A stretch of DNA of 64,000 nucleotides from an uncultured Elusimicrobia bacterium (GTDB taxonomy: Bacteria; Elusimicrobiota; Elusimicrobia; 2-01-FULL-59-12): NCBI GenBank assembly GCA_964604825.1, contig CAZSAL010000004.1, positions 11,400 through 75,399 of the forward strand. The letters are read 5' to 3'. Shown here one piece after another: positions 44,146 to 63,568 of the stretch. A program made the translations under genes and the position numbers. Position 1 is the stretch's first letter. Each line of letters begins with the position of its first letter. The notes below the pieces were generated by a model that had not been told where the DNA came from, searched no databases, and saw nothing but the letters and a program-made list of their open reading frames with translations.

Positions 44146-44154
44146 GGCTAAGCC

Positions 44155-44565: not shown

Positions 44566-44589
44566 ACAGCACCGTCGGGAGGTTTATCC

Positions 44590-45735: not shown

Positions 45736-45764
45736 ATGTGCAATTGTAGTAATCAGGAGGAAAG

Positions 45765-46326: not shown

Positions 46327-46335
46327 GAGGTCATC

Positions 46336-46866
46336 TTGAAAATTGAATTTAAAACTCTAAATATGATGCAGCTCAGAAAATCTCCCGGAGAGGTCCTGGA
46401 TCGTGTTGCCCGAGATGGGGAGGTCTTCGTTGTGGAAAGGAACGGGCAGCCCAAGGCTTGTTTGGTCCCCGTCTCATTCCTCATGCCGGATGTATCGCCT
46501 GACCGCATTACCGATGAGCTAAACAAGCTCCGCGATAAAAATGAAAATTTCAAGGTGACCATTAGCGACGGCAAAGAGTTGGAAATCAGCTTCCACGAAG
46601 TCGCCGCGGGCGAAAACGTTGTGGTGACCGTCACTCTACCTCACGGATATCCCAATTCTGCCCCTCGAATTCAAGTTCCACAGTTGCCGTCGAACACGCC
46701 CAAACGATGGCAAGATGGTTCCTTGTCCATTTTTGGAGCGACGGCGACGTGGAATACAAAAAATCACGACGTCGTTTATGCGCTGGGCGAGGCGAGACGA
46801 TGGCTACGACAATATGCAAAGTGGCGCAAAAATGGTGAGTGGCCGACAACGCCGGAGGGCGCTTAA
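46336..46866 (+). CDS. E2-like paralogue lacking the catalytic Cys (UEV-like), with a Phd/YefM-antitoxin-like N-terminal extension
   Basis: LPHGYPNSAPRIQV and DGSLSIF (Cys replaced by Ser) are paralogous to the upstream E2-like. N-terminus QLRKSPGEVLDRVARDGEVFVVERNGQPKACLVPV resembles Phd/YefM. Confidence 0.5.
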   Translation: MKIEFKTLNMMQLRKSPGEVLDRVARDGEVFVVERNGQPKACLVPVSFLMPDVSPDRITDELNKLRDKNENFKVTISDGKELEISFHEVAAGENVVVTVTLPHGYPNSAPRIQVPQLPSNTPKRWQDGSLSIFGATATWNTKNHDVVYALGEARRWLRQYAKWRKNGEWPTTPEGA

Positions 46867-48615: not shown

Positions 48616-48619
48616 CCCC

Positions 48620-49465
48620 ATGAACATTATTACGGTCAATGTGGGTCAAGGCGCTCTCTCCATAGTCCGGCATCAGACGGAAGCCATTATTGTAGATTCG
48701 AGAATTCCTCCGTCGGATGACGACACTGTAGCCTTTGTCAAAGGAATGCTGGCCACGTCATTGAAAGGCCACTATGTGAAAGGGTTAGTATTGACAGGAT
48801 TTGATAGCGACCATCTGGATGTTGTCGGTCTCTCGATCGTTCTCCCCAAGTATCGGCCCGATTGGGTCATGTATCCCAAATACTATAAAGACAGCGAAGA
48901 GGCCAAATTGGCGTTTGATCTCATCACCGAACAAGAAGACCTTCGACGTGGTTCCGCCAATCCGTTGGAAAGAGTATCCGTCCGGCTTGACGTGCTGTCC
49001 AACCGCAAACTTTCCGGTCTCTCCTCCAACTTCGACTTTGAGCTATTCTCGCCGCACATTGCGGATATGGATAATTCGAATAATTCCAGCATTGTTCTCA
49101 AATTGACAGGAATAGGGGCAGGTGGATTTTCCTACTTGATCACTGGCGATACGGAAAACGAACGATGGAAAACGATCAGCGAATTGTTCGGAGGTGCCTT
49201 GAAGGCACATGTTTTGGCAGCGCCCCATCATGGGTCAAAAAATACCACTCATCCCGCCTCATTGCTTCATATCAATCCGCACACCGTTCTGATCAGCGCC
49301 GGCGTAGACAGTCAATATGGCCATCCCAGTCCAGAAGCCGTTAAAGTCTATCAACGAGTTGCAAGATATGTTTTCTCGACCAATATGGGAAACGGCGTTT
49401 CACTCCTCACTCAACCAGGTCTCACCGAGATCACGACGACACTAATCCCGAGTTCGGATGCATGA
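48620..49465 (+). CDS. metallo-beta-lactamase-fold protein (ComEC C-terminal-domain-like)
   Basis: LTGFDSDHLD and APHHGSKNT motifs of the ComEC-type MBL domain. Confidence 0.6.
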   Translation: MNIITVNVGQGALSIVRHQTEAIIVDSRIPPSDDDTVAFVKGMLATSLKGHYVKGLVLTGFDSDHLDVVGLSIVLPKYRPDWVMYPKYYKDSEEAKLAFDLITEQEDLRRGSANPLERVSVRLDVLSNRKLSGLSSNFDFELFSPHIADMDNSNNSSIVLKLTGIGAGGFSYLITGDTENERWKTISELFGGALKAHVLAAPHHGSKNTTHPASLLHINPHTVLISAGVDSQYGHPSPEAVKVYQRVARYVFSTNMGNGVSLLTQPGLTEITTTLIPSSDA

Positions 49466-50121
49466 AAAAGGGAAAAAGTAGTGCACCCACCGCTTACTTA
49501 AAAAGCAAGAACGCGATCTCTCTATGGTCATTCATCGGCGTGCATCTGGCCATTTTCCTCTCCCTGTCTATCGGCAAGCAATGGAATAGTGCCTCGGTGA
49601 ATCATTTTTGGGGTCGCATTACGACAAAAGATGGTCTGATTGCTGCCTGCATGCCCATCATCACCATTGTCTTGACCGGACTTCTCGGCGATACCGGAAA
49701 GGCGCGACTGATTTTCTGGCGGTGGCGTGATCCCTTGCCGGGATGCCGAGTGTTTACGGAACTTATGGCAGCAGATCCGCGCATTGATCACGGAATTCTA
49801 AAGACCAAACACGGAACACTCCCTTCTGAACCCCACGCGCAAAACGCCCTGTGGTATAGGCTTTACAAAAAGCATCTGGCCAAAGCGAATGTAAGCGAAT
49901 CGCATCGAATCTATTTGTTGATGCGTGATATGACAGTTGTCTCGGCCATCTTCGCTGTCCTGCTTCCAGTCGGCGTTTTCATGGTGTCGGTCGACAGGCA
50001 AGTCGTCATCATTTACAGCGCCGCTCTTATAGCGGAATACATGATCCTTGCTACCTCGGCGAGAAATTACGGCGAACGGTTTGTTTTAAACGTTCTCGCT
50101 GAAGAAGGTAATGCGCCTTAG
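49462..50121 (+). CDS. hypothetical polytopic membrane protein
   Basis: ATGA-coupled to the MBL gene; about 4 hydrophobic helices. Confidence 0.4.
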   Translation: MKKGKSSAPTAYLKSKNAISLWSFIGVHLAIFLSLSIGKQWNSASVNHFWGRITTKDGLIAACMPIITIVLTGLLGDTGKARLIFWRWRDPLPGCRVFTELMAADPRIDHGILKTKHGTLPSEPHAQNALWYRLYKKHLAKANVSESHRIYLLMRDMTVVSAIFAVLLPVGVFMVSVDRQVVIIYSAALIAEYMILATSARNYGERFVLNVLAEEGNAP

Positions 50122-50292
50122 CGTTAGCCAGTGAATCTTAAGACCTAAATCCTCCTTTCTCTGGTTCCGTCCGAGACTCCTCGGGGCCAAATAGAACGAT
50201 TTCCGGTTCCCTCATCCTCTCTTTAGCAAACCCTATCAGGTTCTAATCGTACGACGAACTTCAACATTATTTTCCGTCTCGCTTTTTCATTC

Positions 50293-50544
50293 TAAGGGTT
50301 GGCGGGTGGAGGCATAGCGGGCAGGCGACACAAAATCGTTGCCCCCTGCGCTTGCGGGGCCCCACCATTTTGTCCCGCCGGATCGCGCCCGCTACTCCCT
50401 ACCCCACGGACGGCCGTCAACCGTGGGGTGTCGCTCGATCCGCCAGACGTCTGGCGGATCGGTTAAACCTCCTCCCTCCAACCCTTTACCCGAATTGTGG
50501 CTCGCCAGATGCGTGGCGGGACTACTTCACGAGGAGACAATCAC
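50293..50544 (+). ncRNA. unclassified structured leader element, copy 1 (multi-hairpin, anti-SD-containing), immediately upstream of a hypothetical gene
   Basis: About 80% identical to 53248..53494. Conserved hairpins with compensatory changes. CCUCCUCC anti-SD-like segment and a downstream GAGGAG SD. Confidence 0.5.
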
Positions 50545-51180
50545 ATGAATAACGAAGTGCCGGTTAAAGAAGTGGCCGCCAAGATGCTGGCGGTCTGCAA
50601 CAGCCTGGGATGGAAGGTTGATATGCCATCGGATGAATTCAGTCACGTGTACCTGAAGGCGCAGGTCGAGGGGTTTCCATCCTCCTACGCCTCACTCACC
50701 TATGGACGGTATCCCTGCGAAGGACGGATCACGGTCACGGCCAATTCCAACCATGATTCGGCCATCTACCGCTACGGAGAAAAGCACCTGAGCATCAGCG
50801 TGAGCGCCAGTCGACCCGCCGAGGCAATCCTGAAAGAAATCCAGCGGCGGTTTGTTCCGACCTATCTTGAGATCGCCCGGAAAGCGGAAGAAATCCATCA
50901 CCGGCACGAGGAATACAGCCGGAAACTGGAGTCCTGTATGGGAGATTTGAAGGGGGAACCCCTGGATGAGCCCGAAAGGACAAATGGGAAGGTTCGTTTT
51001 CACTTGGACGATATCTGGGGAGCGGTGCAGTATGCGAGCGATGACCAACTCGCCATCGACTTTCATAATGTCCCGGCGGAGAAAGTAGGCCGCATCCTGG
51101 CGATTCTGCGGGAGAAGGTTGGTTCACTGAAGGAGGAATCCCTTGTATCGGATTCAGTGAGAGGTAACTGCCATGAATAG
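50545..51180 (+). CDS. hypothetical protein (211 aa)
   Basis: ATG 50545 follows SD GAGGAG; the rest of the listed ORF lies inside the structured leader. Confidence 0.5.
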   Translation: MNNEVPVKEVAAKMLAVCNSLGWKVDMPSDEFSHVYLKAQVEGFPSSYASLTYGRYPCEGRITVTANSNHDSAIYRYGEKHLSISVSASRPAEAILKEIQRRFVPTYLEIARKAEEIHHRHEEYSRKLESCMGDLKGEPLDEPERTNGKVRFHLDDIWGAVQYASDDQLAIDFHNVPAEKVGRILAILREKVGSLKEESLVSDSVRGNCHE

Positions 51181-51475
51181 AAAATATCTAGCGCTCCACG
51201 AAGCGATCAGCGAAGGCCGCGCGGAGTGGGGCAATGTTCAGATTCCGTCCAGCTTGTTACCTCCTGGACGCAAGTGCCTCAATCAGTTCTGCGAAAGTCT
51301 CTTCTGCAGTCGCCATCACCCGGTCCCGTCATTGGCCGAGGAGCGATGGTACGTCAAACGGTTCCTTGGAGTGAGCTGGATCTTTTTCGTACCTCGGAAT
51401 CATTGGCGTCGGTGGTGCTTGCTTGCCGCGTTTAAATCGCACCGTGACGCGCAGGTTTACCTGAACACGCTGTAG
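51173..51475 (+). CDS. small hypothetical protein with a CxxxxC...CxxHH cluster
   Basis: ATGA-type coupling with the upstream ORF; Cys/His cluster KCLNQFCESLFCSRHH. Confidence 0.35.
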   Translation: MNRKYLALHEAISEGRAEWGNVQIPSSLLPPGRKCLNQFCESLFCSRHHPVPSLAEERWYVKRFLGVSWIFFVPRNHWRRWCLLAAFKSHRDAQVYLNTL

Positions 51476-51539
51476 GGAAGTTTAACCACAGAACCTGGGA
51501 GGCGCTTAACCGCCTTTCGTATATGGGTTGTATGCAGTG

Positions 51540-51590
51540 AGGGCGGGTTGTTCACCAGACCGTTGGTGGATGGCCCGCCTTCTTTATTGT
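51540..51590 (+). terminator. candidate rho-independent terminator
   Basis: GGGCGGG ... CCCGCC stem with an inner CACCA/TGGTG helix, followed by TTCTTTATTGTC. Confidence 0.45.
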
Positions 51591-51637
51591 CTGACTCGCT
51601 TCCTCTGGAGGCGAGAACTTAAAACAAGGAGAACAAC

Positions 51638-53119
51638 ATGCCAACGAAAGAAGTCGCACAGCTGCAAATGGCCGTAAAAGAGATCGTGGAAGGGTCGAAT
51701 TGCCGCAGCCGGATGAATCCCGGCAAGTTCGAGGAGCTGGTGCAGAACGTCAAGAAAGTGGGGATTTTGGAACCGGCGCTTGTGAGGAGGGACGCGGAAG
51801 GGAAGGTCATTCTGATCGCAGGGCATCGGCGCCTGGCGGCGGCCAAAGCCGCTGGGTTGGAAAATATACCGGTGCGGCTCTTGGAAGTGGATGAGAAGCA
51901 GGCTGCCGAAATACAGACCTTGGAGAATCTCCACCGGGAAGACCTTGCGTCGATGGATGAAGCTCGGGCCTTCAAACAACTCCTGGATGGGGGTTCGCAC
52001 ACGATCGAGTCACTGGCCGCTCAAATAGACAAGTCACCTACCTACGTCTATCGGAGCCTGAGGTTGCTCGAATTGCCGGCCAAAGCAATCAAGGCTCTGG
52101 AGGAGGGGATTATCACCACCGGCCACGCACAGCAAATCCTGCGCGCCCCGGAGAAAAACGCCGAAGCGCTCGTGGCCTTTGCGACCACACGTATGGAATG
52201 GCAGAAACGCTATCCCAGCGTTTCGGAACTGCGGGAATACGTCGAGAAACGCATCGCCAAGGACCTTGCGGCGGCGCCGTTTCCGAAAGACGTACCGTAC
52301 GCAGAACAGGTCGCGTGCAACGCCTGCCCGTTCAATACCGGCAACCAGAACGTGCTCTTTGATGGCGCAACCAAGGGTCACTGTACGAACCCCGGCTGCT
52401 TCAACCGCAAAACAGCCGCCTACTACAAAGAGCTACAGACCACGGCAGCCGCCAGGTACGCGGGGCTGAAGTTCCTGGGAACCGCTTCAGATAACGGGTA
52501 CGCTTCGGGCCCCCAACAGATCAAAGGGGCGTATGTGGTGGAAAAGCTCGACGACAAAATCAAGAAGGCCATTCAGGCCAAACCGGATCAGTTCGGGTTC
52601 GGGATCGTAAAGCCCTCACGCTGGGGAGGGAAGAAGGCGCGTGTCGTTCTTCTCTGCAAAGAAGCGAAGTTGGCGGGGGTGAAGGAAGTGAATCGTGCAC
52701 CGGCCTATCGGGAACAAACCCCTGAAGAGCGCGAACGAGAGGAGTTTATTCGAAGCCATGTTCAAAGAACCTACGCTGCGCTTGCCGTCGAAATGCTGGA
52801 GTTTGATAAAGAGGACCTCCTCGCGCTTCTACAGGAGGAATGGGACGATGATTGGAAACGTCGCCGGGTCCTGCCATTCCTGGAAGCCTCGGGAGTTTCA
52901 GAATCAGATGCAGAGGAGGGTAAGTTTCCGGCAGAGGTTCTGGAAAAGAAAAGCCGGGATTCGTTGATCCAACTCGTGCTCTTGTCGATGCTCAATGACA
53001 ACAGCGATTCGATCGGCTCACTTTTGGAGGTCAAAAAAGTGAAAGTGCAGGAAGTGCTCAATAAAGCTCAGGCCGAGGCGCTCAAGGTCTGGAACGAGAA
53101 GCATCCCCAGGCCGCATAA
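51638..53119 (+). CDS. ParB/Spo0J/KorB-like N-terminal-domain protein
   Basis: ParB N-terminal domain (ILEPALVRR...IAGHRRLAAAKAAGLENIPV); SD AAGGAG. Confidence 0.75.
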   Translation: MPTKEVAQLQMAVKEIVEGSNCRSRMNPGKFEELVQNVKKVGILEPALVRRDAEGKVILIAGHRRLAAAKAAGLENIPVRLLEVDEKQAAEIQTLENLHREDLASMDEARAFKQLLDGGSHTIESLAAQIDKSPTYVYRSLRLLELPAKAIKALEEGIITTGHAQQILRAPEKNAEALVAFATTRMEWQKRYPSVSELREYVEKRIAKDLAAAPFPKDVPYAEQVACNACPFNTGNQNVLFDGATKGHCTNPGCFNRKTAAYYKELQTTAAARYAGLKFLGTASDNGYASGPQQIKGAYVVEKLDDKIKKAIQAKPDQFGFGIVKPSRWGGKKARVVLLCKEAKLAGVKEVNRAPAYREQTPEEREREEFIRSHVQRTYAALAVEMLEFDKEDLLALLQEEWDDDWKRRRVLPFLEASGVSESDAEEGKFPAEVLEKKSRDSLIQLVLLSMLNDNSDSIGSLLEVKKVKVQEVLNKAQAEALKVWNEKHPQAA

Positions 53120-53140
53120 GTCATTCCCGTCGCACTGAAG

Positions 53141-53182
53141 GCCGGCTCTCTCCCAAACGGAGAGGGTCGGCCTTTTTTTTCG
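53141..53182 (+). terminator. rho-independent terminator
   Basis: 14-bp GC-rich stem (GGCCGGCUCUCUCC / GGAGAGGGUCGGCC, two G-U pairs), 5-nt loop, then a run of 9 T. Confidence 0.7.
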
Positions 53183-53247
53183 ACTGCATACCTCGAAAAC
53201 GGAAATCCTGATTTATCGCGTCGTGGTTGGAAAGCGTGCTATCGAGC

Positions 53248-53494
53248 ATTCCCATTGTAAGGGTTGCCGGAAGGAGGCATAGCGGACAGACGGAACAAAA
53301 TCGTTGCCCCCTGCGGGGCCCCACCATTTTGTTCCGTCTGATCGCGTCCGCTACTCCTTACCCCACGGGCGGCCGTCAACCGTGGGGTGTCGCCCGGCCC
53401 CTTCCGGGGCCGCGTTAAACCTCCTCCCGTCAACCCTTTGCCTTTCAGTGGCTCGCCAGACACACGGCGAGACTATCACGCGAAGGAGAAAGAC
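53248..53494 (+). ncRNA. unclassified structured leader element, copy 2
   Basis: Paralogous to 50293..50544; same helices with compensatory substitutions. The anti-SD CCUCCUCC opposes the downstream GAAGGAG SD. Confidence 0.5.
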
Positions 53495-53776
53495 ATGACG
53501 ACCATACGAGACAACATGAAGGACCTGGTGCAGCGGATGCTGGTGACCAAGGGGATTACTTCTGAAGAACAGGCGTATGAATGGGCCTGTGGGATTGCCG
53601 ATCACCTGGGATTGGATGGGTTGGAGGGGGATCAAATCGGGCGGCTGGCCTGTGTGATCCTCACCACATTGAAGGGAACGACGACCCTTTATCACAAGCC
53701 GGCCGAGGTGCCGGTGGTGTGGATCAACTTTGACGATCTCAGGCGCGAAGGCGTCGAGTCCGTGGAGGTGTTCTAG
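53495..53776 (+). CDS. hypothetical protein (93 aa)
   Basis: ATG 53495 after SD GAAGGAG; the rest of the listed ORF lies inside the structured leader. Confidence 0.45.
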   Translation: MTTIRDNMKDLVQRMLVTKGITSEEQAYEWACGIADHLGLDGLEGDQIGRLACVILTTLKGTTTLYHKPAEVPVVWINFDDLRREGVESVEVF

Positions 53777-53778
53777 CC

Positions 53779-54453
53779 ATGGAAACCACCCAACAAGCTG
53801 ACTTGATCCGGGATTTGCCGCCCTGCATTCGTCCTCTGTCGCGACTGGGAACCTTGGGTGTGGAAGCGCTCAAGGAGGCCGAGCTGCTTTCGCTGGCGGT
53901 CCGGTCACGCTCGCTGCGCTGGCCAGAGGAAGTGCTGGGTCGTCACAGTGTGAAGGAATTGCTGGGGATGCCCTGGCAGAGACTGGCTTCGCTGCGCGGG
54001 ATAAGCCATGCGGGAGCGGCGGCGCTTTTAGCTTCGGCGGAACTGGTACGGCGCGCGTCGGGCCAACCGGATGCGGGCCGGCCCGTTCTTCAATCGGTGG
54101 GGGATGTGGCGGTGCAGGCTCTGGAGATACGAGACAAGAAAAAAGAGTACCTGCTCGCCTTCTTTCTGAATGCCCGGCATCAGCTGATCGCTAAAGAGAT
54201 CATCTCGATCGGGACGCTGACGGCGTCTCTGGCACATCCTCGAGAGATCTTTGCTCCGGCGATTGGACAGGCCGCGGCGGGGGTCGTGCTCGTGCATAAC
54301 CACCCCTCGGGAGATCCTTCACCCTCGGATGAAGACGTCCGACTGACCAAGCGCATCGCACAGGCGGGCCAGATCATGGGCATAGAGTTGCTCGACCACC
54401 TTATTCTGGCTTCGTCTGGAACTTTTTCGTTTAAGACCAGCGGTGCGCTCTGA
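53779..54453 (+). CDS. radC: RadC-like JAB-domain protein
   Basis: HNHPSGDPSPSDEDVRLT JAMM motif and RadC family C-terminus. Confidence 0.85.
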   Translation: METTQQADLIRDLPPCIRPLSRLGTLGVEALKEAELLSLAVRSRSLRWPEEVLGRHSVKELLGMPWQRLASLRGISHAGAAALLASAELVRRASGQPDAGRPVLQSVGDVAVQALEIRDKKKEYLLAFFLNARHQLIAKEIISIGTLTASLAHPREIFAPAIGQAAAGVVLVHNHPSGDPSPSDEDVRLTKRIAQAGQIMGIELLDHLILASSGTFSFKTSGAL

Positions 54454-54983
54454 TGGATGCTCGAACGTTTACGGAGCTTCATTTGGATTGCAGGAAACGT
54501 GTGCTTTTCGGGATTCGAGGGTATGTACGCAATCACGATGAGGCGGAGGATGTGACGGCTTCGGCTTTTGCGACCGCCTTTCAAAAGCGCAAGAGCTTCC
54601 GTAATGAGTCATCCTTCTACACCTGGGTTTATCGGATCGCCGTCAACCGTGCGACGTCGTCCCTGCGCAGGCGGCGGACGGTATCGCTGGATCTGCTTGA
54701 GGGAGCGTTACCGGATTCATTGATCGAATCGGACTTGATGGACCGCGCGATTGACCGGGAGGAGTGCTGCCGGAAGCTGCGCTGGGCGCTTCGGAAAATT
54801 CCGGTCTATTACCGTCAGGTCCTGGTGGACCATTTCGTCCGGGGCTTTTCGATCCGGCAGATCGCCCGGCGTCATCGCATTCCGATCGGAACGGTGTTGA
54901 GCCGGATCTTCAGCGCCAAGCGGCGGCTTCGGCGGGCGTGGAAAGGCAGGGAATCAATAAGAGCCGACTTAAGAGGGTCGTAA
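54453..54983 (+). CDS. ECF-type RNA polymerase sigma factor
   Basis: Sigma70 region 2 (YTWVYRIAVNR) and region 4 HTH (FSIRQIARRHRIPIGTVLSRI). Confidence 0.8.
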   Translation: MDARTFTELHLDCRKRVLFGIRGYVRNHDEAEDVTASAFATAFQKRKSFRNESSFYTWVYRIAVNRATSSLRRRRTVSLDLLEGALPDSLIESDLMDRAIDREECCRKLRWALRKIPVYYRQVLVDHFVRGFSIRQIARRHRIPIGTVLSRIFSAKRRLRRAWKGRESIRADLRGS

Positions 54984-55275
54984 ATACTTAAAAAATACGA
55001 GGACCCTCGCACTTATTCTCGCTTCGCTCCGTCACCGCCTGCTCCGCTCGAATGGGGATGCGCTATTAGGGGGGATGAATTGACGGGCAAAAAATGGCGT
55101 TTTGAGGGTGACAGGCAGAACTCACCGTTGGCTCACAGAAAGTCCCAGGCGTCAGAGGACAAAAGACTGTGGGCATTTCAGCCGTGAATTTGGCCTGATC
55201 GCCCCATTGATGCTTTCGGGTTTCCGAGCCAACCTTAGAGTCGAGGGGCATCGATTCGGAAAGGGCCACCAAACC

Positions 55276-55944
55276 ATGCGGATTCTGCTTGTTGATGGAG
55301 ACAAACGATCCAGCCTCTTTTTAAAAGAAGGGCTGTCCCGTGAGGGATTCGCCGTCGACGTTGCCGGCGACGCTGAAGAAGCCCTGCAGATGACGGGAAA
55401 CATTCCCTATGACGGTCTGCTCTTGAATGGCCGCTTTCCAGACCGGACCGCTTACGGGCTTCTCGCCGCGCTGCGCAAACAGGGTTGCCCTGCCGCCATC
55501 CTCATGCTGTCGGGGCAAAACCCTCCGCCGGGAAATACCTCCTTGCCTCACCCCTCGGAATCCAGCCCCCGTCTTACGGACATCACCGCCCGCCTGTACG
55601 CGGCGATGGAGACGAGCCGGGCCCTTCAGGAAAGCGAAGGTCACTCACCCCAACTTCGATCGGGCGACCTGCGAATGGATCTGGGTGCGCACCGCGTCCT
55701 GTGGCGCGGAAAAGAGGTCGATCTCACCAAAAAAGAATTCGAACTCCTGGAATGCCTGCTCCGCCATCCGGGCCGGGTCCTCTCCCAGCACGCCATCGCT
55801 CAGGAAATCTGGAACATCGACTTTCAGGGCCATTCGAACATCGTCGAAACCCACGTCAAACGCCTGCGCGCGAAATTGGGGGATCGGTTTCCCGTTCATC
55901 TCATCCAGACCATTCGCGGTGTCGGCTACCGACTCGTCGTGTAA
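55276..55944 (+). CDS. OmpR/PhoB-family response regulator with an atypical receiver (phospho-acceptor Asp position occupied by Asn)
   Basis: Receiver domain plus winged helix (GVGYRLVV). Aligns LLLNGRFP where canonical receivers have LLLD; the acidic pocket is VDGD. Confidence 0.75.
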   Translation: MRILLVDGDKRSSLFLKEGLSREGFAVDVAGDAEEALQMTGNIPYDGLLLNGRFPDRTAYGLLAALRKQGCPAAILMLSGQNPPPGNTSLPHPSESSPRLTDITARLYAAMETSRALQESEGHSPQLRSGDLRMDLGAHRVLWRGKEVDLTKKEFELLECLLRHPGRVLSQHAIAQEIWNIDFQGHSNIVETHVKRLRAKLGDRFPVHLIQTIRGVGYRLVV

Positions 55945-56008
55945 GTCAGTCCCTCTGCCATACTCCAGCTGCCGGTTCCGCTGGCTGAATTCCTCATATC
56001 TCAACTTC

Positions 56009-56105
56009 CGCCATTTTCCCGCCATCTGATCGCCATCTGACCGCCATGTAAATATCATCAAATCGCCATCCAATCTCCATCGTCCCGTCAGCGGATCGCC
56101 AGATT
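56009..56105. repeat. array of CGCCAT-containing direct repeats with 11-bp periodicity; candidate response-regulator operator
   Basis: CGCCAT at 56012, 56021, 56032, 56043 and 56065; degenerate copies CTCCAT at 56076 and CGCCAG at 56098. Spacings are 9, 11, 11, 22, 11 and 22 bp. Confidence 0.5.
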
Positions 56106-56308
56106 CACTCCTTAGAATTTAAGGCGGTGAATGTTCGTGTTAATAACTGATCCCTTCATCGGAACCCTTTCAGACCTGGCCCCAGGCCGGTCCCGGACAG
56201 CCGACACCCCCCAATTCTCCGCATGCCCAATAGTCCTATTTTTACGTGGCACGCCCTCCGATCTTCCGTCGAGAGAGCTTCTTTTTCAATCATGCGGGTT
56301 TAGGGAAG

Positions 56309-56341
56309 TCGGGAATATTTTTCGATTTTCGACACTAATGC
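56309..56341 (+). promoter_or_regulatory. conserved 33-nt motif copy C, upstream of the PorV-like gene
   Basis: TCGGGAATATTTTTCGATTTTCGACACTAATGC, ending 14 nt before ATG 56356. Confidence 0.5.
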
Positions 56342-56355
56342 ACAGGATGGCAATA

Positions 56356-57483
56356 ATGCGGACGCGAACCTTGATCCTGATTCTGACCTTGATGCTGACC
56401 GGACTCCTGCGGGCTTCTGACCCTGGAACGACGGCGGCGGATTTCCTGAACCTGGGAGCCGGTCCCCGCGCGATCGCAATGGGGGATGCCCAGGTGGGCC
56501 TGGCCAACGATGTCTATTCGACTTATTGGAACCCGGCGGGCCTCTCCACTTTAAGGACTCAGGAAGCCGCTTTTGTCCAGACGCAGTACCTCCAGAATAT
56601 TTCCCAGGAGTATCTGGCCTATGCCATGCCTCAAACCCGTTTTGGTTCTTTTGGCGCGAGCTTCACTTATCAAGGCTACGGAAGTTTCTCCGGATACGAC
56701 GCCTCGGGCCAACCGACCGCCAGCGTGGGCGCCAATGACATGGATCTGGGGATCTCTTACAGCCGTGATCTCTATAAGGATGAACGCTATGGCTCCGAGT
56801 TGTCGGCCGGCGTCACTGGGAAATGGATCCGCGAGCAACTGGACCAGGCCAGCGCCAATGCCTACGCGGGAGACTTTGGACTGCTTTTTTCCCCCGGCAT
56901 CCGGTGGGGGGAATCTCTAAACGGCTGGAAAGCGGGTTTGGCGCTGCGCAATGTCGGCACCGCCATGACTTTTGATCAGGAATCCTTTGCGCTTCCCCGA
57001 ACTCTCGCCGCCGGACTCTCCTATACGGGCAACTGGCGGGATGAATCCATCACTGTCACTTTGGACGGCCGGCAGCCGAATAGTGGAGCGCGGAGCATGG
57101 GAGCGGGTCTTGAAATCTGGACCCTGCAATCCTTTGTTCTGCGCGGAGGTTACACCACGGAAGGTGATTTGGGCAGCGGTCTGCGCGTCGGCGCAGGGAT
57201 TCGCTTTAAGACGATCGAAGTCGACTATGCCTTCGCCTCGGAGGGCCCGTTAGGCAACACGCAGCGATTCGGACTCACGCTTCGATTTGCCGCTCCGAAA
57301 GAAAATCCCGTGCTCCTGGCGCAGCATTCCTTTGAAAGGGGCATGCACGAATTCAACAAAGGACGTTATACCGAGTCGCTCGCGGATTTTAATAAAACGC
57401 TCGAAGTCGATCCCACGCATCCGCAGGCGCTCGACATGATGAAACGAACTTATGAAAAGCTCAATGAACCTTCAGCGCAATAG
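56356..57483 (+). CDS. PorV/PorP(SprF)-like outer-membrane beta-barrel protein with a C-terminal TPR region
   Basis: Signal peptide, then the PorP/PorV family N-terminal motif (RAIAMGDAQVGLANDVYSTYWNPAGL). C-terminal TPR-like helices. Confidence 0.5.
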   Translation: MRTRTLILILTLMLTGLLRASDPGTTAADFLNLGAGPRAIAMGDAQVGLANDVYSTYWNPAGLSTLRTQEAAFVQTQYLQNISQEYLAYAMPQTRFGSFGASFTYQGYGSFSGYDASGQPTASVGANDMDLGISYSRDLYKDERYGSELSAGVTGKWIREQLDQASANAYAGDFGLLFSPGIRWGESLNGWKAGLALRNVGTAMTFDQESFALPRTLAAGLSYTGNWRDESITVTLDGRQPNSGARSMGAGLEIWTLQSFVLRGGYTTEGDLGSGLRVGAGIRFKTIEVDYAFASEGPLGNTQRFGLTLRFAAPKENPVLLAQHSFERGMHEFNKGRYTESLADFNKTLEVDPTHPQALDMMKRTYEKLNEPSAQ

Positions 57484-58897
57484 CCTGATTCTGGCGTTGC
57501 TCTTTTTCCCCGTGGGGCTCCATGCCGTGGCGGCCAGCGGAGGTGACTACACCCTGACCAAATGCCTTGCCGGGGAATCCGGAGTCAATCAGGTTTCTTC
57601 CGCGGATTACGGAACGCCTTACACGCTGGGCGAAGACGCCGCGGGCGTCGACATGCAAAGTACGGATTACGATCTGGTCACCGGCTACTTCAGCGGTTAT
57701 CCCAGCGGCACCGTCGGACCTTTCAGTCTCTTAAGTTCTAATGTGGGCACAACCAAAATCCTGCAGGATGGCGTTCAGGTCGGTGTGCCCGTAAACGCCA
57801 CAGTCCAGCTCACGTTTTCAAGTCCGCTTGATCCGACCACGATCGCCGGGGGCATCCAGGTCATGATGGTCATGGACCATCTCGGGCAACCTCAGGATGT
57901 CATTGTGCTGTCCTCCTATACCTACGATGCTGCCGGGTCTACGGTCGTTTTCTCGCCGCAAGGCGCGTGGCCGGGCAATACGCTCCTGGACGTGATCGTC
58001 AACAGCCAATTGCAGTCGATCGACGGCTTTGCGCTCGCCCAGGAAGCGCACGTTCGATTCATCACGGTTCTGGACCCTGCTCAGGAGAACGTTGTCCTGC
58101 ATCCCATTCCGATTCCGGGGCTGGCTCAGGCCTCGGCTGTCGGCAGCGCGCCGTCTTTAAACCTCGATATCCCAACCGGGTCCCTCTCCAGTTACGCGTA
58201 TGTGCTGGTCAGCCAGGACCCGATTCATTCCCCGCTCCAGGCAAACCCCAGCGTCATCCAGACGGCGACGCAGAAAGCCCAAAACTCGGGCGGCGCCTAC
58301 CAGACGCCGCTCGCCCTTGAAGAAATTGCCGCTTACAACCAGCAGGGTCAACCCATGAGTCTGGCCAAGGCAATCAGTTTTTCAATCACCTCCAGTGGAA
58401 GTCAGGGCTTTACGGGCGGGACGACCGTGCCGATCAACCCACAGACGCTCTCTCTCTGGACATTGGATTCGGCGCACTCCTTGTGGGTCAAAATGCCGGA
58501 CAGCCGCCCGGATGGAGCGGGTGTGGCCGGATCGGTCACCCAGTTCTCGGTTTATGCCCTGATGGGGAGCGCCGCCACCGATGCTTCCAATACCTATGTC
58601 TTTCCGTTGCCCTGGCGGCCGCACGGTCCGAATTCCGGCGACGGCCCTGGTCAGACGGGGACCGACTCCGGCGGCATCACGTTCTCAAACCTTCCGTCCG
58701 AGTGCTCGATCAAGATTTACACCGTGACAGGGGGGCTTGTGCGCAACCTGCATCATTCCGATTTAGCCGGACCGGTCGGCCAGGAAAAGTGGGACGGCAA
58801 CACGTCGAGCGGGGAGCACGCCGCCAGCGGAGTATACCTCTGGCGCGTGGAATCGTCCGCCGACGGCAAAAACGGCAAGCTCATGCTCATACGCTAG
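57452..58897 (+). CDS. secreted protein with a T9SS-type C-terminal sorting domain-like tail
   Basis: Signal peptide. C-terminus IKIYTVTGGLVRNL...GVYLWRVESS...KLMLIR resembles the Por secretion-tail / FlgD-Ig-like CTD. Confidence 0.45.
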   Translation: MKSSMNLQRNSLILALLFFPVGLHAVAASGGDYTLTKCLAGESGVNQVSSADYGTPYTLGEDAAGVDMQSTDYDLVTGYFSGYPSGTVGPFSLLSSNVGTTKILQDGVQVGVPVNATVQLTFSSPLDPTTIAGGIQVMMVMDHLGQPQDVIVLSSYTYDAAGSTVVFSPQGAWPGNTLLDVIVNSQLQSIDGFALAQEAHVRFITVLDPAQENVVLHPIPIPGLAQASAVGSAPSLNLDIPTGSLSSYAYVLVSQDPIHSPLQANPSVIQTATQKAQNSGGAYQTPLALEEIAAYNQQGQPMSLAKAISFSITSSGSQGFTGGTTVPINPQTLSLWTLDSAHSLWVKMPDSRPDGAGVAGSVTQFSVYALMGSAATDASNTYVFPLPWRPHGPNSGDGPGQTGTDSGGITFSNLPSECSIKIYTVTGGLVRNLHHSDLAGPVGQEKWDGNTSSGEHAASGVYLWRVESSADGKNGKLMLIR

Positions 58898-58905: not shown

Positions 58906-59877
58906 ATTCAGGAGATGACCATGAAGAAGATCACGGTTTTACTCATGTTGATGCTGACAGCCAGCGCGGCCCTCCGGGCCATGCCTGCGCAGATCACCTT
59001 CCAGGGAACGCTCAAGCAAAAGAATGTTCCGGTCAATGTCGCCAAGAACATGCAGTTCAGTTTTGTGGACTCCTCCGGCAGCAGCATCCCGGGGACTGTT
59101 CCCGTCGCCATCGCGAACGTCCAGGTGACGAACGGATTGTTTGCCGTTCAACTGCCGCTCGACCCGACGATTCCGTGGGACAAGTATCAGCCGTACATCC
59201 AGGTCTCCGTGGAAGGGCAGGTCCTCGGCCCCAATCAGCCGCTGAATGCCAACGCCTATGCCATGGTGGCCAATAGCGTAGTGGACGGCTCCATCACCTA
59301 TGCGAAACTGGCCCCCAGCGCGCAAACCGCCACGGTGCCACCGGGCGCGGTGATGGCCTTCGACGGATCGGTGGCTCCCGGCGGCTGGCTATTCTGTGAC
59401 GGCTCCGCCGTCAGCCGAACCACTTATTCCAGCCTGTTTGCCGTCATGGGCATCAACCACGGAAGCGGGGACGGAACCAGCACCTTTAACCTTCCGGATT
59501 ACCGGGGCCGCTTCCTGCGCGGTCAGGACCAGGGGACTGGCCGTGACCCCGATGCGGCCGGCCGCAGCGCGATGAACGCCGGGGGCAATGTCGGGGATGC
59601 GATTGGCACTGTAGAAGGCGGTGCGACCGCCATGCCGAACAATACCTTCGCGACGGATAAATCCGGCGCTCATACGCACCAGTATTTACGACCCATTCAC
59701 GGGTGGGGTGACCAGTCCGGCTCCAATGGCGTGCCCTGGGTCATTGCGGGTGATCAATATGGCACGACCGGCCAGCCGGAAGGGACCGCGGACGGAGCGC
59801 ATAGCCACAAAGTGGTCGGCGGCGACAACGAGACGCGGCCGGTGAATGCCTCCGTGAACTGGATCATTAAGTACTAG
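58906..59877 (+). CDS. phage tail-collar domain protein (MdpB-like), secreted
   Basis: Signal peptide; collar-domain core AFDGSVAPGGWLFCDGSAVSRTTYSSLFAVMG...FNLPDYRGRFLRG. Confidence 0.7.
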   Translation: MQEMTMKKITVLLMLMLTASAALRAMPAQITFQGTLKQKNVPVNVAKNMQFSFVDSSGSSIPGTVPVAIANVQVTNGLFAVQLPLDPTIPWDKYQPYIQVSVEGQVLGPNQPLNANAYAMVANSVVDGSITYAKLAPSAQTATVPPGAVMAFDGSVAPGGWLFCDGSAVSRTTYSSLFAVMGINHGSGDGTSTFNLPDYRGRFLRGQDQGTGRDPDAAGRSAMNAGGNVGDAIGTVEGGATAMPNNTFATDKSGAHTHQYLRPIHGWGDQSGSNGVPWVIAGDQYGTTGQPEGTADGAHSHKVVGGDNETRPVNASVNWIIKY

Positions 59878-59879: not shown

Positions 59880-61181
59880 ATGAGGCTCATCGTTCCTCAT
59901 CGCGTTAAACGTTCAGGTCTGCCAGTTCTCTTGCTGCTTCTGGCCAGCGCTCTGAGCCTGCAGGCGGAGAGCCTGAACCCTCCCGAACTGGCGCAGGGGA
60001 TTCAAGCCTATCAGGAAGAGCGCCTCTTGACCGCCCTGGGGCATTTCATTCATGTCATCGAGAAGAACCCATCCAACACGCAAGCCCAGACCTATGTGAA
60101 ATTGATCGCGCAGAAATTGCAGGACCGGCAGGCAGAGCGCGCGCGTGAGGAAGAAGTGGCGATTCTGTCTGCGACGTCCAGACTCCTGGACAGCCGGCGA
60201 ATGGATACCCGGGCCGTTGATCGGGACTTGCGAGAAATCATGAACGCGAAATCCGAGCGCGAGGCGGCGGAACGCCATTCCAAGTGCACGATGGCGCAGA
60301 TGGAAGCTCAATTGGGGCGACTGGCGGTGGCCAACGATTTGGTTTTTCAAGTCATCGCCCAGTGCCCGACTGATTCAGAGGCCCAACGCCTCTTGAGCGA
60401 TTTGCAGAGTCAGATCCGGCAAACTCTGGACGGGCGCAAGGACCTCTCTGTCCCCGAGCGCCGGACCCTCGAAGGATTTTACGCCTACGGCCAGGCGGAC
60501 TACACGTCGGCCGCGGCGGCATGGGGTCAGGCCCGGAGCGCCCTTGATCAGAGTCTGCCCGGACCCGAGGCGATTCATCAAGTGGCGCTCCTCCATTTTG
60601 AAGCGTATGAGAAAATCGCCCGAGCGCATGTCGACGAAGAACTGGAGGCTGCCCGGCTTCGGCTCCTCTTCGGTGAAGGCGTGGCCGCCTATGAGAAACA
60701 GGACTTTAGTAAAGCGCTGAACTCTTTCCGTCAGGTGGCTCTCGCCGATCAAACCTATCCGCAATTGGGCCAATACCTCGTCCAGTCGGAAGTGGCCGTC
60801 GAGCGAAACCGCACGAGCGCCTTGAGCGACGCCAAGCGGCAGGAAGCTTCACAGGCCTTTGCCAAAGGCATGGCCAATCTCGAAAAAGGCGACTACGCGC
60901 TCGCCAGGACTTCTTTCGAAGCGGTACTTGCGCTGGATCCCGCTCATCCTCAGGCCAAACTGTATTTGCAGCAGATCGACTCTCAGAAAACCCGGCCCAC
61001 CGATCCTTTGGCCGGTCAGCAGCATTATGAGGCGGGACTCATGGCCTTTGTCGGAGGCGATATGGAGCAGGCGATCCGCGAATGGCACATCGCGCTCAGG
61101 TTTGATCCGGAGAATCCCAAGGTGACCAGCTCTCTAAACAAGGTCCAAAGGGAATTGGCGTCGGCCCACGAACTCCCTTAA
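59880..61181 (+). CDS. TPR-repeat protein (secreted)
   Basis: Signal peptide; multiple TPR-like helical hairpins. Confidence 0.55.
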   Translation: MRLIVPHRVKRSGLPVLLLLLASALSLQAESLNPPELAQGIQAYQEERLLTALGHFIHVIEKNPSNTQAQTYVKLIAQKLQDRQAERAREEEVAILSATSRLLDSRRMDTRAVDRDLREIMNAKSEREAAERHSKCTMAQMEAQLGRLAVANDLVFQVIAQCPTDSEAQRLLSDLQSQIRQTLDGRKDLSVPERRTLEGFYAYGQADYTSAAAAWGQARSALDQSLPGPEAIHQVALLHFEAYEKIARAHVDEELEAARLRLLFGEGVAAYEKQDFSKALNSFRQVALADQTYPQLGQYLVQSEVAVERNRTSALSDAKRQEASQAFAKGMANLEKGDYALARTSFEAVLALDPAHPQAKLYLQQIDSQKTRPTDPLAGQQHYEAGLMAFVGGDMEQAIREWHIALRFDPENPKVTSSLNKVQRELASAHELP

Positions 61182-61200: not shown

Positions 61201-62592
61201 ATGCGGCTTTTTCCAAAATTGGCTCTCCTGGTTTCCGGACTCCTCCTGGCCGCCGTGGTGGGGTTGAGTGCGCTCTATTACGTGAGCGAGGAACGACTCA
61301 TCCGGCAACAGGCGCAAGCTCACCAGCAGGAGCTTCTCCAGAACCTGGTGTTGATCGCCCAGGATGCCTATTTCTCGACAGACGACCTCCTGCTGGCCAC
61401 CTACACGCACCGGTTGTTGAAATGGAATCCGGAACTCCTGAGTGCAAGTGTCGTGGACCCGCGCGGGCGGATCAAGGCACATTCCGAACCGCACAACATC
61501 GGCAAGATGAGCGATGCGGTCACGCCGTCTTCCGCCCTGGTCTTAAGTCAGCCCGTTAAATACGGGCAATTATATTTAGGGACCGCCTCCGTGATGTTTT
61601 CTCAGAAAGTGCTGGACGCTATGCTTCAGGCCCGTCTGGACGAACTTAAAAAGCGTGTCCTCAGTTTGACCATCACAGTGCTCCTCCTGGGCCTGGCCGG
61701 TTCCTTTGGGATGGCCTTGTCCTGGACGCGGCCGATCAAGCGCGTCATTGTCGGAGCCGAAGCGATCGGCAAAGGCCGCTGGGACATTGATCTGGGAGTT
61801 TCAGAAGAGCGCCGCGATGAGTTGGGAATCCTCTCGCGCTCGATCCGAGCCATGGCCGGCGAGCTCAAAGAGCTCGATCAAATGAAAGAGGATTTCGTGA
61901 CAGCCGTCACGCACGAGCTGCGTTCACCTTTGGGCGCCATCGAATGCTTCCTGAATAAGATCGCCGACGAGCGTCGCCTGGGTCGCCCGCAGACCCAATG
62001 GGACGACTACCACAACCGCATGGCGCAGAATGTCCAGCGCCTGACGCGTTTTGTTAACGATCTTCTGGATGTCGCCGCTCTCGACCGGGGAAAGGTTCAA
62101 CTGCAGCCTGAAGTCGTCGATATGGGAGTGATGACGCGTGAGGTGGTGGCGCTCTTTGAAGCGACGCTCCAGCAAAAACGCATGCGCGCCGAAATTGAGC
62201 TGCCGGACCGGCTTCCCAAGGTTTTGGCCGATCCGGACAAGATTAACCAGGTGGTCGTCAATCTCCTATCCAACGCCATCAAATTTACGCCGGAGGGGGG
62301 ACTGATCAGGATTCGCTTGGACGATTTGGATCCGAAACCATTCCTGCAAATTTCCGTCGTGGATTCGGGCGTTGGAATCCGTCCGGAAGACCAGGTCAAA
62401 CTTTTCAACAAATTTGAACAGGTGAAGTCGACCCGTCAGAAACTAAAAGGGCCGAAAGGAACCGGGCTTGGTCTGGCGATCTGCAGGGGCCTCGTCGAAT
62501 TGCATGGAGGCGAAATTCAAGTCTCCAGCGAACTGGAACAGGGAAGCACGTTTACCTTCACGCTTCCCGTTGTTCCCGTCGCGTTAAATTGA
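61201..62592 (+). CDS. sensor histidine kinase
   Basis: TM-extracytoplasmic-TM architecture, H-box THELRSPL, and HATPase_c G-boxes (GTGLGLAI). Confidence 0.85.
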   Translation: MRLFPKLALLVSGLLLAAVVGLSALYYVSEERLIRQQAQAHQQELLQNLVLIAQDAYFSTDDLLLATYTHRLLKWNPELLSASVVDPRGRIKAHSEPHNIGKMSDAVTPSSALVLSQPVKYGQLYLGTASVMFSQKVLDAMLQARLDELKKRVLSLTITVLLLGLAGSFGMALSWTRPIKRVIVGAEAIGKGRWDIDLGVSEERRDELGILSRSIRAMAGELKELDQMKEDFVTAVTHELRSPLGAIECFLNKIADERRLGRPQTQWDDYHNRMAQNVQRLTRFVNDLLDVAALDRGKVQLQPEVVDMGVMTREVVALFEATLQQKRMRAEIELPDRLPKVLADPDKINQVVVNLLSNAIKFTPEGGLIRIRLDDLDPKPFLQISVVDSGVGIRPEDQVKLFNKFEQVKSTRQKLKGPKGTGLGLAICRGLVELHGGEIQVSSELEQGSTFTFTLPVVPVALN

Positions 62593-62608: not shown

Positions 62609-63568
62609 ATGGATACAAACCCTATTCTGTACGTGGAAGACGAGCCGGACTATCAGGTCCTGGTTTCTGGAATTCTTTCCGAAGCAGGCATCTTCACGGA
62701 AGTAGCCGATACCGGCGAAGACGGCATGGAGAAGCTCTCCCGAAGGACACCCAGCCTTCTGCTCTTGGACGTCAATCTCCCGGACACGAGCGGCTATGAC
62801 CTGTGCAGCCGCATCCGTCAGGAAGAAGCCTGGGCGGATCTTCCGATTGTGATGTTGACGGTCCGCGGTCGACCGAATGAATGGCTGGAGGGATTCTCCA
62901 AAGGAGCTGATGACTATCTGTCCAAGCCCTTCAATCCGCCGGAGCTGATCGAACGAGTGCAGTCGATCTTAAACGGAAAACGCGACCGGCGTTTGAACTC
63001 GGATGATCCGGAACATCTTCTGATCGAAGCCGCGCTGGCCGGCAATCGCAGGGCCTTTGAAGTGCTCATCACCCAGTACAGAATGCCACTTCTTCACAGC
63101 GTCAGGAGACTTGCGGACAATCCTGCCGTGGCCGAAGATATTGTCGCCGCCGCCTTTTCGACTGCCTATGAAACGCTAGGGCGATTCAACGGCAACTCTT
63201 CCTTCTTCACGTGGCTCTATGGCATCGCTGACAATCAAATTCATACGGAGTGGCGGAGCCACAGTGTCGCCCCCCTGGTTGAATTCAATGAAGAGCACCC
63301 GGCGCGCTCGAGCCATTCCTCCGTTTCCATTTCGGCCAACCAATCCGAGTTGTATCTGAAGGCAATGCGCAAGCTCGATCGTGCCATTACCAGCCTGCCG
63401 GCGGACTATCGCACGCCGGTCCGCCAACATTGCATCAATGAGGTTCCGGTCGAAGATCTCGCCCGTCAGCTCAAGCTCCCCGTCGGGACCGTCCTCTCCC
63501 GGATCCACAGGGGGAAAGCCCTCCTCCGGAAAATCTTCAGACGATACCCCAAGCCGGAAGCTCTTTAA
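62609..63568 (+). CDS. response-regulator receiver domain fused to an ECF-like sigma factor
   Basis: Canonical REC (VEDEPD, LLLLDVNLPD, MLTVRG, SKPF), then sigma70 region 2 and region 4 (DLARQLKLPVGTVLSRIHRGK). Confidence 0.75.
   Translation: MDTNPILYVEDEPDYQVLVSGILSEAGIFTEVADTGEDGMEKLSRRTPSLLLLDVNLPDTSGYDLCSRIRQEEAWADLPIVMLTVRGRPNEWLEGFSKGADDYLSKPFNPPELIERVQSILNGKRDRRLNSDDPEHLLIEAALAGNRRAFEVLITQYRMPLLHSVRRLADNPAVAEDIVAAAFSTAYETLGRFNGNSSFFTWLYGIADNQIHTEWRSHSVAPLVEFNEEHPARSSHSSVSISANQSELYLKAMRKLDRAITSLPADYRTPVRQHCINEVPVEDLARQLKLPVGTVLSRIHRGKALLRKIFRRYPKPEAL

Follow-up and report, generated by a model that had tools for sequence, protein, structure and literature searches.

A putative phosphorylation-independent OmpR/PhoB-type regulator and a nine-unit direct-repeat array ahead of a PorV/PorQ-family gene in an uncultured Elusimicrobia bacterium

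In this study, we have explored a 64,000-nucleotide stretch of DNA from an uncultured Elusimicrobia bacterium (assembly GCA_964604825.1, contig CAZSAL010000004.1, positions 11,400 to 75,399; hereafter the window), in which a gene for an OmpR/PhoB-family regulator with a degenerate receiver is followed, on the same strand, by an array of nine 11-bp direct repeats and then by a gene for an outer-membrane protein of the PorV/PorQ family. A preliminary description of this DNA, made from the sequence alone, had drawn attention to the regulator and to the repeats, and its claims are taken up below where our results bear on them.

The regulator and its degenerate receiver

The regulator gene (55276..55944, forward strand) encodes 222 amino acids, and its description draws on the open reading frame (ORF) call, on Pfam and NCBIfam scans and on PDB and family alignments. 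An upstream TTG is another candidate start codon; we place the start at the ATG at 55276 because the orthologues all begin MRIL(L/V)V. The C-terminal winged helix is intact (Trans_reg_C, PF00486, 93.9 bits against a cutoff of 26.2, over amino acids 145-220 and the full profile), and this domain identifies the protein as a member of the OmpR/PhoB family. In PDB alignments it can be followed along its length against DrrD, PrrA, RegX3 and others, the best match among solved structures being DrrD (1kgs, E = 6e-30). The receiver matches Response_reg (PF00072) with 28.7 bits, under the gathering score of 30.2, and over profile positions 1-80 of 111 only. In NCBIfam, the protein finds only sub-cutoff matches, to many OmpR-family equivalogs, of which the CopR/CztR subfamily is the best (131 bits vs 279). 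It is not PhoB proper, the two PhoB models giving 85.2 bits against a cutoff of 296.2 (TIGR02154) and 85.7 against 270 (NF053854).

Three of the five residues of the canonical receiver set are lost. In the alignment to DrrD (1kgs) and other solved OmpR-family proteins, Asn51 stands at the position of the acceptor Asp (LLLNGRFP vs ILLDIMLP), Asp7-Gly8-Asp9 falls at the position of the acidic pair with Gly8 in place of the second, metal-binding acidic residue, and the position of the KPF motif has no Lys, being occupied by Ser97 (Ser97-Pro98) in the family alignment and by Arg99 in the pairwise alignment. The two residues that are kept are Asp7 and Ser79, the latter at the Thr/Ser position in the PDB alignment. 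The preliminary description had read an Asn in place of the phosphorylatable Asp, a VDGD acidic pocket and no clear KPF Lys, while allowing that a re-alignment of the receiver could find an Asp at the acceptor after all; each of these readings is borne out, and both the structure and the family alignments keep Asn51. In published usage, a recognisable receiver without the acceptor Asp is an aspartate-less receiver (ALR), and one in which any of the five conserved residues is missing is a pseudo-receiver (PMC12632262, PMC4395418). By these definitions the present protein is, on its sequence, an aspartate-less pseudo-receiver atypical response regulator of the OmpR/PhoB type. Asn is the second commonest substitution among ALRs (16%), and ALRs account for about 2% of the OmpR-type architecture (PMC4395418). 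Activation of the regulator by conventional Asp phosphorylation is predicted not to be possible.

The lineage of the regulator is small, and the altered acceptor is found throughout it. Nine relatives of the regulator at 54-81% identity came out of a word-indexed search of 5.8 billion sequences, followed by a steep fall to 40% or less, and an exhaustive search of 1.84 billion cluster representatives returned two full-length clusters of the aspartate-less kind only (P0009 and P0243). P0001-P0009, L005, the four members of a second clade (L006-L009, where the segment reads ILNAFLPD) and P0243 have Asn at the acceptor, and P0010 has Ser; counted over the 14 other sequences of the clade (P0002-P0010, L005 and L006-L009), this makes 13 with Asn and one with Ser. 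Across the whole lineage, the second acidic residue is replaced by Gly, Ala or Arg, and the Lys position of the KPF motif holds Arg in most of the group to which the window belongs (clade A), Ser in the window regulator and a retained Lys in the second clade (clade B). All of the nearest canonical relatives that were inspected (identity of 41% or less, from P0245 at 41% onwards) carry Asp at the acceptor. No orthologue was found in the genome collection, where the best matches (38-41%) belong to Elusimicrobia metagenome-assembled genomes (MAGs) and carry Asp; these genes are followed by different repeats and have no adjoining PorV gene. Because Asn or Ser occupies the acceptor throughout the lineage and Asp does so in the nearest canonical relatives, the loss is, judging from these alignments, old and conserved within the lineage, and a sequencing error does not account for it. 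This distribution, together with the two further catalytic residues lost in the window regulator, supports the earlier proposal that the protein is probably a pseudo-receiver regulator acting independently of phosphorylation.

An AlphaFold2 model of the regulator (mean predicted local distance difference test score, pLDDT, 76; predicted template modelling score, pTM, 0.48) folds as beta1-alpha1-beta2-alpha2-beta3-alpha3-beta4 and alpha5; a long helix spans residues 100-120 and is followed by the winged helix. At the expected place of alpha4-beta5 there is a Pro-rich segment, QNPPPGNTSLPHPSESS (residues 81-97), with pLDDT below 50, and alpha4-beta5 of the window regulator is predicted to be disordered; for this reason the canonical, phosphorylation-driven alpha4-beta5-alpha5 dimer appears unlikely. 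In the family alignment, most orthologues retain at this place a segment of the form G-x-DDY/F-L-x-(R/K)-P.

The repeat array and its conservation

The array occupies 56009..56107 on the forward strand and begins 64 nt past the stop codon of the regulator gene. Delimited with a repeat finder and by its register across loci, it has the consensus YGYCAKC plus 4 nt, and we regard it as a predicted operator. Its units open with CGCCAT at 56009, 56020, 56031 and 56042 (U1 to U4), TATCAT at 56053 (U5), CGCCAT at 56064 (U6), CTCCAT at 56075 (U7), CGTCAG at 56086 (U8) and CGCCAG at 56097 (U9), which makes five exact copies of CGCCAT (U1 to U4 and U6) and seven matches to YGYCAK in nine in-phase slots. 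Seven repeats had been described previously, with a first step of 9 bp and gaps of 22 bp further on. The direct repeats are real, and they number nine: the earlier starts were 1-3 nt too high, every step is 11 bp, and the 22-bp gaps are filled by the in-register degenerate units TATCAT (56053) and CGTCAG (56086). The more general point, that direct repeats on one face of the helix are typical of OmpR/PhoB sites, gains support from the strict 11-bp register and from its retention across orthologous loci.

The period of 11 nt is the helical repeat of DNA and is not a multiple of 3. Measured against a pho-box-like site, defined as at least two contiguous 11-bp direct-repeat units with a conserved core of 6-7 nt, the array has nine such units with the core YGYCAK(C). 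In the rest of the window, searched on both strands at periods of 6-24, no more than two YGYCAK hexamers stand in phase, the four seen at period 22 being the array itself. The in-phase maximum is 3 over 200 shuffles, against 7 in the array, and a two-unit repeat pattern occurs four times, always inside the array, where 0.48 occurrences are expected. Functions at the level of RNA or protein were considered and rejected: Rfam at a permissive E-value is blank in 54900-56500 and the predicted fold of 55945-56130 is no better than that of shuffles (z = +0.27), while an 11-nt period breaks the reading frame and the overlapping ORFs are shadows of the regulator gene.

For the comparison between loci, orthologous DNA was taken from metagenomes, the contigs of P0003, P0008, P0009 and P0010 standing outside this DNA comparison. 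Wherever an orthologous locus extends far enough, its regulator gene is followed by an array, which starts 30-64 nt past the stop codon. Nine 11-bp slots are present in L164/L004, L166, L006, L007, L008, L009 and L017, the register is also kept in L015, and in L005 the first three units are present before the contig ends. The array of L001 keeps the nine-slot register, but strict matches occupy four of its nine slots only. The regulators of clade B are 42-46% identical to that of the window, and their arrays are still in register. In a scan of 166 loci on both strands (1.43 Mb), the only loci to reach three or more in-phase hexamers are those of the regulator's clade, and the roughly 150 loci with canonical OmpR-family genes have two at most. 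Three in-phase copies of CGCCAT or CGTCAG were found at 187 loci of viral contigs, none of which encodes a relative of the regulator, of the PorV-family protein or of their neighbours.

Individual units have features of their own that recur from locus to locus. In most loci the weakest unit is U5 (TATCAT, TATCCA or TAGCCA), U8 is CGTCAG in both clades, and the 4-nt tails alternate, odd units ending TYC(C/G) and even units being A-rich, which yields a 22-bp super-period of the size of a dimer site. The 4-nt spacers diverge between the clades while unit number, register and these unit-specific features persist. The hexamers read CGCCAT/TGCCAT/TGTCAT in clade A and CGTCAG/CGTAAG in clade B, and the recognition helix reads SN(I/V)VETHVKRLR in the window group as against SNVVERHV(S/C)(R/H)LR in clade B, so that hexamer consensus and recognition helix change in parallel between the two clades. 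Positions 192 and 195 of the regulator presumably correspond to Val197 and Arg200 on the recognition helix of PhoB bound to DNA. Because the neighbouring PorV-family protein is 76-90% identical across loci whose regulators share only 42-46%, the regulator-operator pair appears to evolve faster than its presumed target, with its architecture kept.

Two further observations concern repeats next to regulator genes. The contig L015 (4464 nt) carries two inverted copies of the clade-B segment of regulator, array and PorV gene, with many frameshifts; we rejected it as a true two-array locus, such a frameshifted and palindromic contig being probably an assembly artefact. Just past the stop codons of the nearest canonical, Asp-bearing relatives, in Elusimicrobia MAGs, TTTCCTGACA occurs twice (L084, 6685-6750) and CTTAAA/TTTAAG motifs are repeated (L085, 6676-6750), with a sigma-factor-like gene next, in place of the PorV gene. 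These repeats hint that a regulator gene followed by its own operator could be the ancestral layout.

Promoter-like elements and neighbouring genes

Exactly 10 nt past the U9 hexamer lies a -10-like hexamer, TAGAAT (56113..56118, forward strand), which would mark a regulator-dependent promoter with its transcription start near 56125. The succession of last hexamer, 10 nt and TAnnnT is invariant in all nine loci laid out, as TAGAAT in clade A and as TACTCT in clade B. A -35 consensus is absent ahead of TAGAAT, where the array fills that place, and a promoter scanner that requires a -35 box makes no call here. A pho box lies around the -35 box (PMC8601176); at the present locus the spacing fits a proximal pair at -35 and is the same in the nine loci, for a promoter that is itself predicted from sequence.

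A second promoter-like motif, of the extracytoplasmic function (ECF) type, GGGAAT-N16-CACTAA (GTCTAA in orthologues), stands at 56311..56338 on the forward strand, 18 nt ahead of the start codon of the PorV-family gene, in an alignment block shared by both clades. It is probably the 33-nt motif of the preliminary description, and may represent a second, sigma-dependent promoter. Its exact 16-mer occurs once in the window; a weaker copy of its first half, CGGGAATATTTTTGCG, with 3 mismatches, is seen at 31645-31660, upstream of an ORF at 31677-32285. The array had been placed about 200 nt upstream of the 33-nt motif and the PorV gene, with the implication that it acts there. The array, however, adjoins its own TAGAAT and need not act on the distal motif, and because the distance from the array to the ECF-type motif differs among loci, it more plausibly works with the adjoining -10-like hexamer. 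We also dropped the idea that the ECF-type promoter ahead of the PorV gene recurs in the conserved block upstream of the regulator gene, the spacing of the ATATT and GTCT elements that they share being, by eye, 18 nt in one case and 13 nt in the other.

Some further sequence features accompany these elements. An ORF that opens with an ATG at 56131 continues in frame into the PorV-family gene (56131-56355), and in L001 and L166 a similar leader ORF (M..D(S/P)xIGT ... SSPFFPFLIR ... GNIFR) ends just ahead of the PorV start. The leader ORF is probably not a gene: it is missing in L164 and in clade B, where all frames contain stops, and the peptides in common fall on conserved DNA motifs. Both clades also have in common a conserved block, about 50 nt long, upstream of the regulator gene (55012-55063, TTATTCTCGC...GCTCGAATGGGGATGCGC), the core of which, GAATGGGGAAG, recurs as the reverse complement CTTCCCCATTC in the PorV leader (56222-56234 in the window). 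The regulator gene and the array are in this way flanked by an inverted pair of 11-12 nt, about 1.15 kb apart, which is degenerate in the window and lies at 9769-9779 and 10906-10916 in L001 and at 1781-1792 and 2968-2979 in L009. There is no sign of inversion between the two copies, all loci being in the same orientation. Finally, a hairpin-forming inverted repeat, GAGGGTC...GGACCCTC (54972-55008), overlaps the stop codon of the ECF sigma gene; it has no T-run, and the terminator scan is silent there.

That ECF-type sigma factor gene (54453..54983; Sigma70_r2 and Sigma70_r4_2; TIGR02937, 69.9 bits against a cutoff of 42.9) lies directly upstream of the regulator gene on the same strand. In L001, L007 and L009, tblastn likewise places it ahead of the regulator gene, with 62-87% identity; the P0009 contig, too, has a sigma gene upstream, and in most orthologous loci the ECF sigma gene is a conserved partner. 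Downstream, the PorV/PorQ-family outer-membrane protein with C-terminal TPR (56356..57483; NF033709, 194.5 bits against a cutoff of 90; Pfam PorV) has named homologues in Elusimicrobia/Elusimicrobiota, and its gene follows the regulator in every long-enough locus at 76-90% identity. We predict it to be the first gene of the target operon. It is followed, again on the forward strand, by genes for a Big_5 protein with a FlgD-Ig/C-terminal domain (CTD)-like tail (57464..58897), a phage-tail-collar-domain protein (58915..59877), a TPR protein (59880..61181), a HAMP-HisKA-HATPase kinase (61201..62592) and a fusion of a canonical receiver with an ECF sigma factor (62609..63568). From the ECF sigma gene through the regulator, array, PorV, Big_5, tail-collar, TPR and kinase genes to the receiver::ECF-sigma fusion, this same-strand string is conserved and has the same order in L001.

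No catalytic residue is missing from the receiver of the fusion (VEDEPD, LLLLDVNLPD, VMLTV, SKPF), and by its sequence the fusion is a phosphorylation-controlled sigma factor within the regulator's own gene string. Since this receiver is catalytically complete, the kinase at 61201-62592 has an obvious canonical partner. It had been stated that no cognate kinase is adjacent to the regulator. None directly adjoins it, as stated; a kinase is nevertheless present 5.3 kb downstream in the same string, with the receiver-sigma fusion as its likelier partner.

Further upstream are a type IV secretion system (T4SS) coupling protein (41795-43537, 400 bits), two genes for single-stranded DNA-binding protein (SSB; 43591-44145 and 44590-44985), an E2-like/ThiF(E1)/JAB-like trio (45949-48615) similar to ubiquitin-like defence accessories of bacteria, ParB (51638-53119) and RadC (53779-54453), and the longer contig L002 has an integrase after the cluster (19506-20600). 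With the T4SS coupling protein, SSB, ParB and RadC upstream and an integrase downstream, the regulator/PorV cluster looks like it lies at the end of an island (41795-54453) resembling an integrative conjugative element. The genes upstream of the regulator differ in L164, and yet the array is present there. In L001, three tyrosine recombinase genes and two ORFs are inserted between the RadC and ECF sigma genes (2514-6119); this locus, which is 81% identical, has both the recombinase insertion and the more degenerate array.

A proposed model for the regulator and its predicted operator

Very probably, the array is the operator of this regulator; the pairing of the two is suggested by strict gene linkage, by clade specificity and by the parallel change of hexamer and recognition helix. 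With a probability of about 0.6 for the reading as a whole, we propose that a phosphorylation-independent OmpR-type regulator binds the array head-to-tail and activates a promoter for the PorV/PorQ-family operon. The winged-helix domains would bind one per 11-bp unit along the nine units, spreading cooperatively from strong to weak units, with the upstream units as extension sites. U8 and U9, at the place of the -35 box, would contact RNA polymerase for class II activation via TAGAAT, and the operon would be reached by rightward transcription across a leader of some 230 nt; the operon may have a second, ECF-sigma-type promoter just ahead of the PorV gene. The activity of the regulator would most likely be set by its abundance (e.g. 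via the adjoining ECF sigma factor) or by some ligand or partner, and not by a kinase. In this scheme we infer the binding, its stoichiometry, activation as opposed to repression, the transcription start and the input signal. There are precedents: PhoP occupies 11-nt direct-repeat units with one monomer per unit and extends cooperatively from core units (PMC2275107), effector domains bind head-to-tail, and constitutively once the receiver is removed (PMC4415409), and Asn-type aspartate-less OmpR regulators such as RitR exist (PMC4395418).

Several observations weigh against this proposal. An odd number of units misfits simple dimer occupancy, and, since the L001 array is degenerate with its four strict units, nine strong units are evidently not obligatory. 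The covariation of helix and hexamer is, with two clades only, effectively one evolutionary event. The -10 call uses a sigma-70-type consensus that may not hold for Elusimicrobiota, and the clade-B version, TACTCT, is weak. In addition, the terminator scan found no terminator-like site between the regulator and PorV genes, and given this the array may lie inside a read-through transcript and act negatively.

This last point also speaks for a reading to which we give some weight, though we think it unlikely, in which the regulator would bind the array as a repressor or roadblock over about 100 bp, blocking read-through into the PorV operon or occluding TAGAAT, with the ECF promoter as the real driver. 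The conserved ECF-type motif directly ahead of the PorV gene fits such an arrangement, and RitR acts as a repressor at the piu promoter. Modulation of the activity of this iron-uptake promoter has been reported for RitR, the best-studied Asn-type relative (PMC4395418). However, an exact spacing of 10 nt to a -10-like hexamer that lacks a -35 box is the layout of an activator-dependent promoter, and a roadblock needs no such register. The repeats also lie on the sense strand, which we take to be the orientation of pho boxes relative to the -10 element in pho promoters, and this too counts against repression. Alternatively, the array could belong to the mobile element, as iterons or a partition centromere bound by another island protein. 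The island, with its T4SS coupling protein, two SSB genes, ParB, RadC and integrases, would provide a setting for this, and 11-bp units with a 22-bp super-period have a counterpart in plasmid R1 parC, which has 11-bp iterons; 22-bp iterons also occur. We nevertheless find this very improbable, because the array travels with the regulator and PorV genes where the upstream genes differ (L164), its register to the -10-like hexamer is fixed and its hexamer changes together with the recognition helix, and a Pfam scan of the neighbours found no gene of the Rep or ParR/ParM type.

It is just as doubtful that the regulator is still controlled by a kinase, through deamidation of Asn51 to Asp, allosterically or via another residue. 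A kinase is conserved in the same gene string, and reversion of an Asn at the acceptor to a phosphorylatable Asp has been reported for a receiver domain (PMC4395418); but the loss extends to the second acidic residue and the Lys, alpha4-beta5 is predicted to be disordered in the window regulator, the acceptor is Ser in one orthologue (P0010), and the kinase adjoins a fully canonical receiver-sigma fusion as its obvious partner. That the array is a neutral, functionless tandem duplication produced by replication slippage is scarcely credible: Tandem Repeats Finder does list it as a short period-11 tandem repeat, but its unit number, register and unit-specific features are kept at 42-46% regulator identity while the spacers diverge, and such an array was not found elsewhere in the window nor, among the 166 loci, outside the regulator's clade. 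A bolder form of the activator proposal, which we consider improbable, is that about nine protomers, each with a truncated or disordered receiver that precludes the alpha4-beta5-alpha5 dimer, polymerise as a filament on 99 bp purely by contacts between DNA-binding domains, with unit affinities under selection (weak centre, strong U8). Regulator and operator would then be a fast-co-evolving, self-contained private switch on an integrative conjugative element, controlling, outside Bacteroidota, a surface-export module of the PorV/PorQ type; another layer, e.g. a second factor or DNA inversion, might come from the conserved inverted pair of 11-12 nt.

Among characterised proteins, RitR of Streptococcus pneumoniae is the closest analogue by residue, though not by specific homology. 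It likewise combines an OmpR/PhoB winged helix with Asn at the acceptor (Asn53) and further divergent pocket residues, and it is an orphan without an activating kinase whose DNA binding is left unchanged by mutations of pocket residues (PMC4395418). There are also clear differences. RitR has no specific sequence relationship to the window regulator, whose best PDB match is the canonical DrrD; it has a full (beta-alpha)5 fold with a kinked alpha4, as against the predicted disordered alpha4-beta5; it acts at the piu promoter, whereas the window regulator is linked to a PorV/PorQ-family operon; and the available part of PMC4395418 describes no nine-unit array for it. For the array, the closest parallel is provided by the pho boxes of PhoB and PhoP (CTGTCAT in E. 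coli, 11-nt units in Streptomyces), which are tandem 11-bp repeats with a core of 6-7 nt and a spacer of 4-5 nt, on one helix face, with degenerate units amid strong ones and a proximal pair that replaces the -35 box. The half-site class of the array overlaps the E. coli pho core CTGTCAT (PMC4415409), TGTCAT being literally present in L164 and L166. PhoB and PhoP differ in that their binding is driven by phosphorylation, which the window regulator is predicted to lack, and the target of the array is not a phosphate-regulon gene. Up to six contiguous units have been footprinted in PhoB/PhoP operators and seven or eight proposed (PMC2275107), and nine units are at the top of the known range or slightly past it, not different in kind.

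ChxR, HP1043/HsrA, JadR1, GlnR and CosR are similar in being atypical OmpR/PhoB regulators that bind direct repeats without Asp phosphorylation (PMC12632262). Their substitutions are different, ChxR having a Glu (PMC4395418), and the group comes from other phyla. Some phosphorylation-independent OmpR/PhoB regulators are controlled by abundance or by small ligands, and the structures known for such proteins are mostly constitutive dimers that use part of alpha4-beta5-alpha5 (PMC12632262), a surface that, from the model, looks degraded in the window regulator but kept in most orthologues. The ECF sigma factor, kinase and receiver-sigma fusion of the window cluster recall PorX/PorY-type regulation, in which the ECF sigma factor is SigP. 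In that system, as reported in PMC12152298, a PorV-type component is under a two-component system and an ECF sigma factor. The window differs in its phylum, Elusimicrobiota, and in that only PorV/PorQ-family and CTD-like-tail proteins were identified, with no full secretion system; no homology to PorX/PorY was seen in the cluster, no test aimed at it having been made. To our knowledge, PorX is not an OmpR-type DNA binder.

No paper naming both Elusimicrobia and PorV was present among the best literature matches. No new class emerges from our results: regulators of the OmpR type without the acceptor aspartate are already established, as are operators of tandem 11-bp units, and the regulator and its array are not surprising in principle; they are, rather, well suited to testing how pseudo-receiver regulators work. 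How bacterial pseudo-receivers switch on and off is largely unknown, according to a 2025 perspective (PMC12632262). For this question the lineage offers an unusually clean test case, with a small protein, a regular operator and a single obvious target promoter, both predicted, and also an apparent natural swap of specificity between its clades (CGCCAT with ETHVKR vs CGTCAG with ERHVSR). Finally, the pair offers a first handle on the regulation of PorV/PorQ-family outer-membrane modules in Elusimicrobiota, where the module appears to be cargo of a conjugative island.

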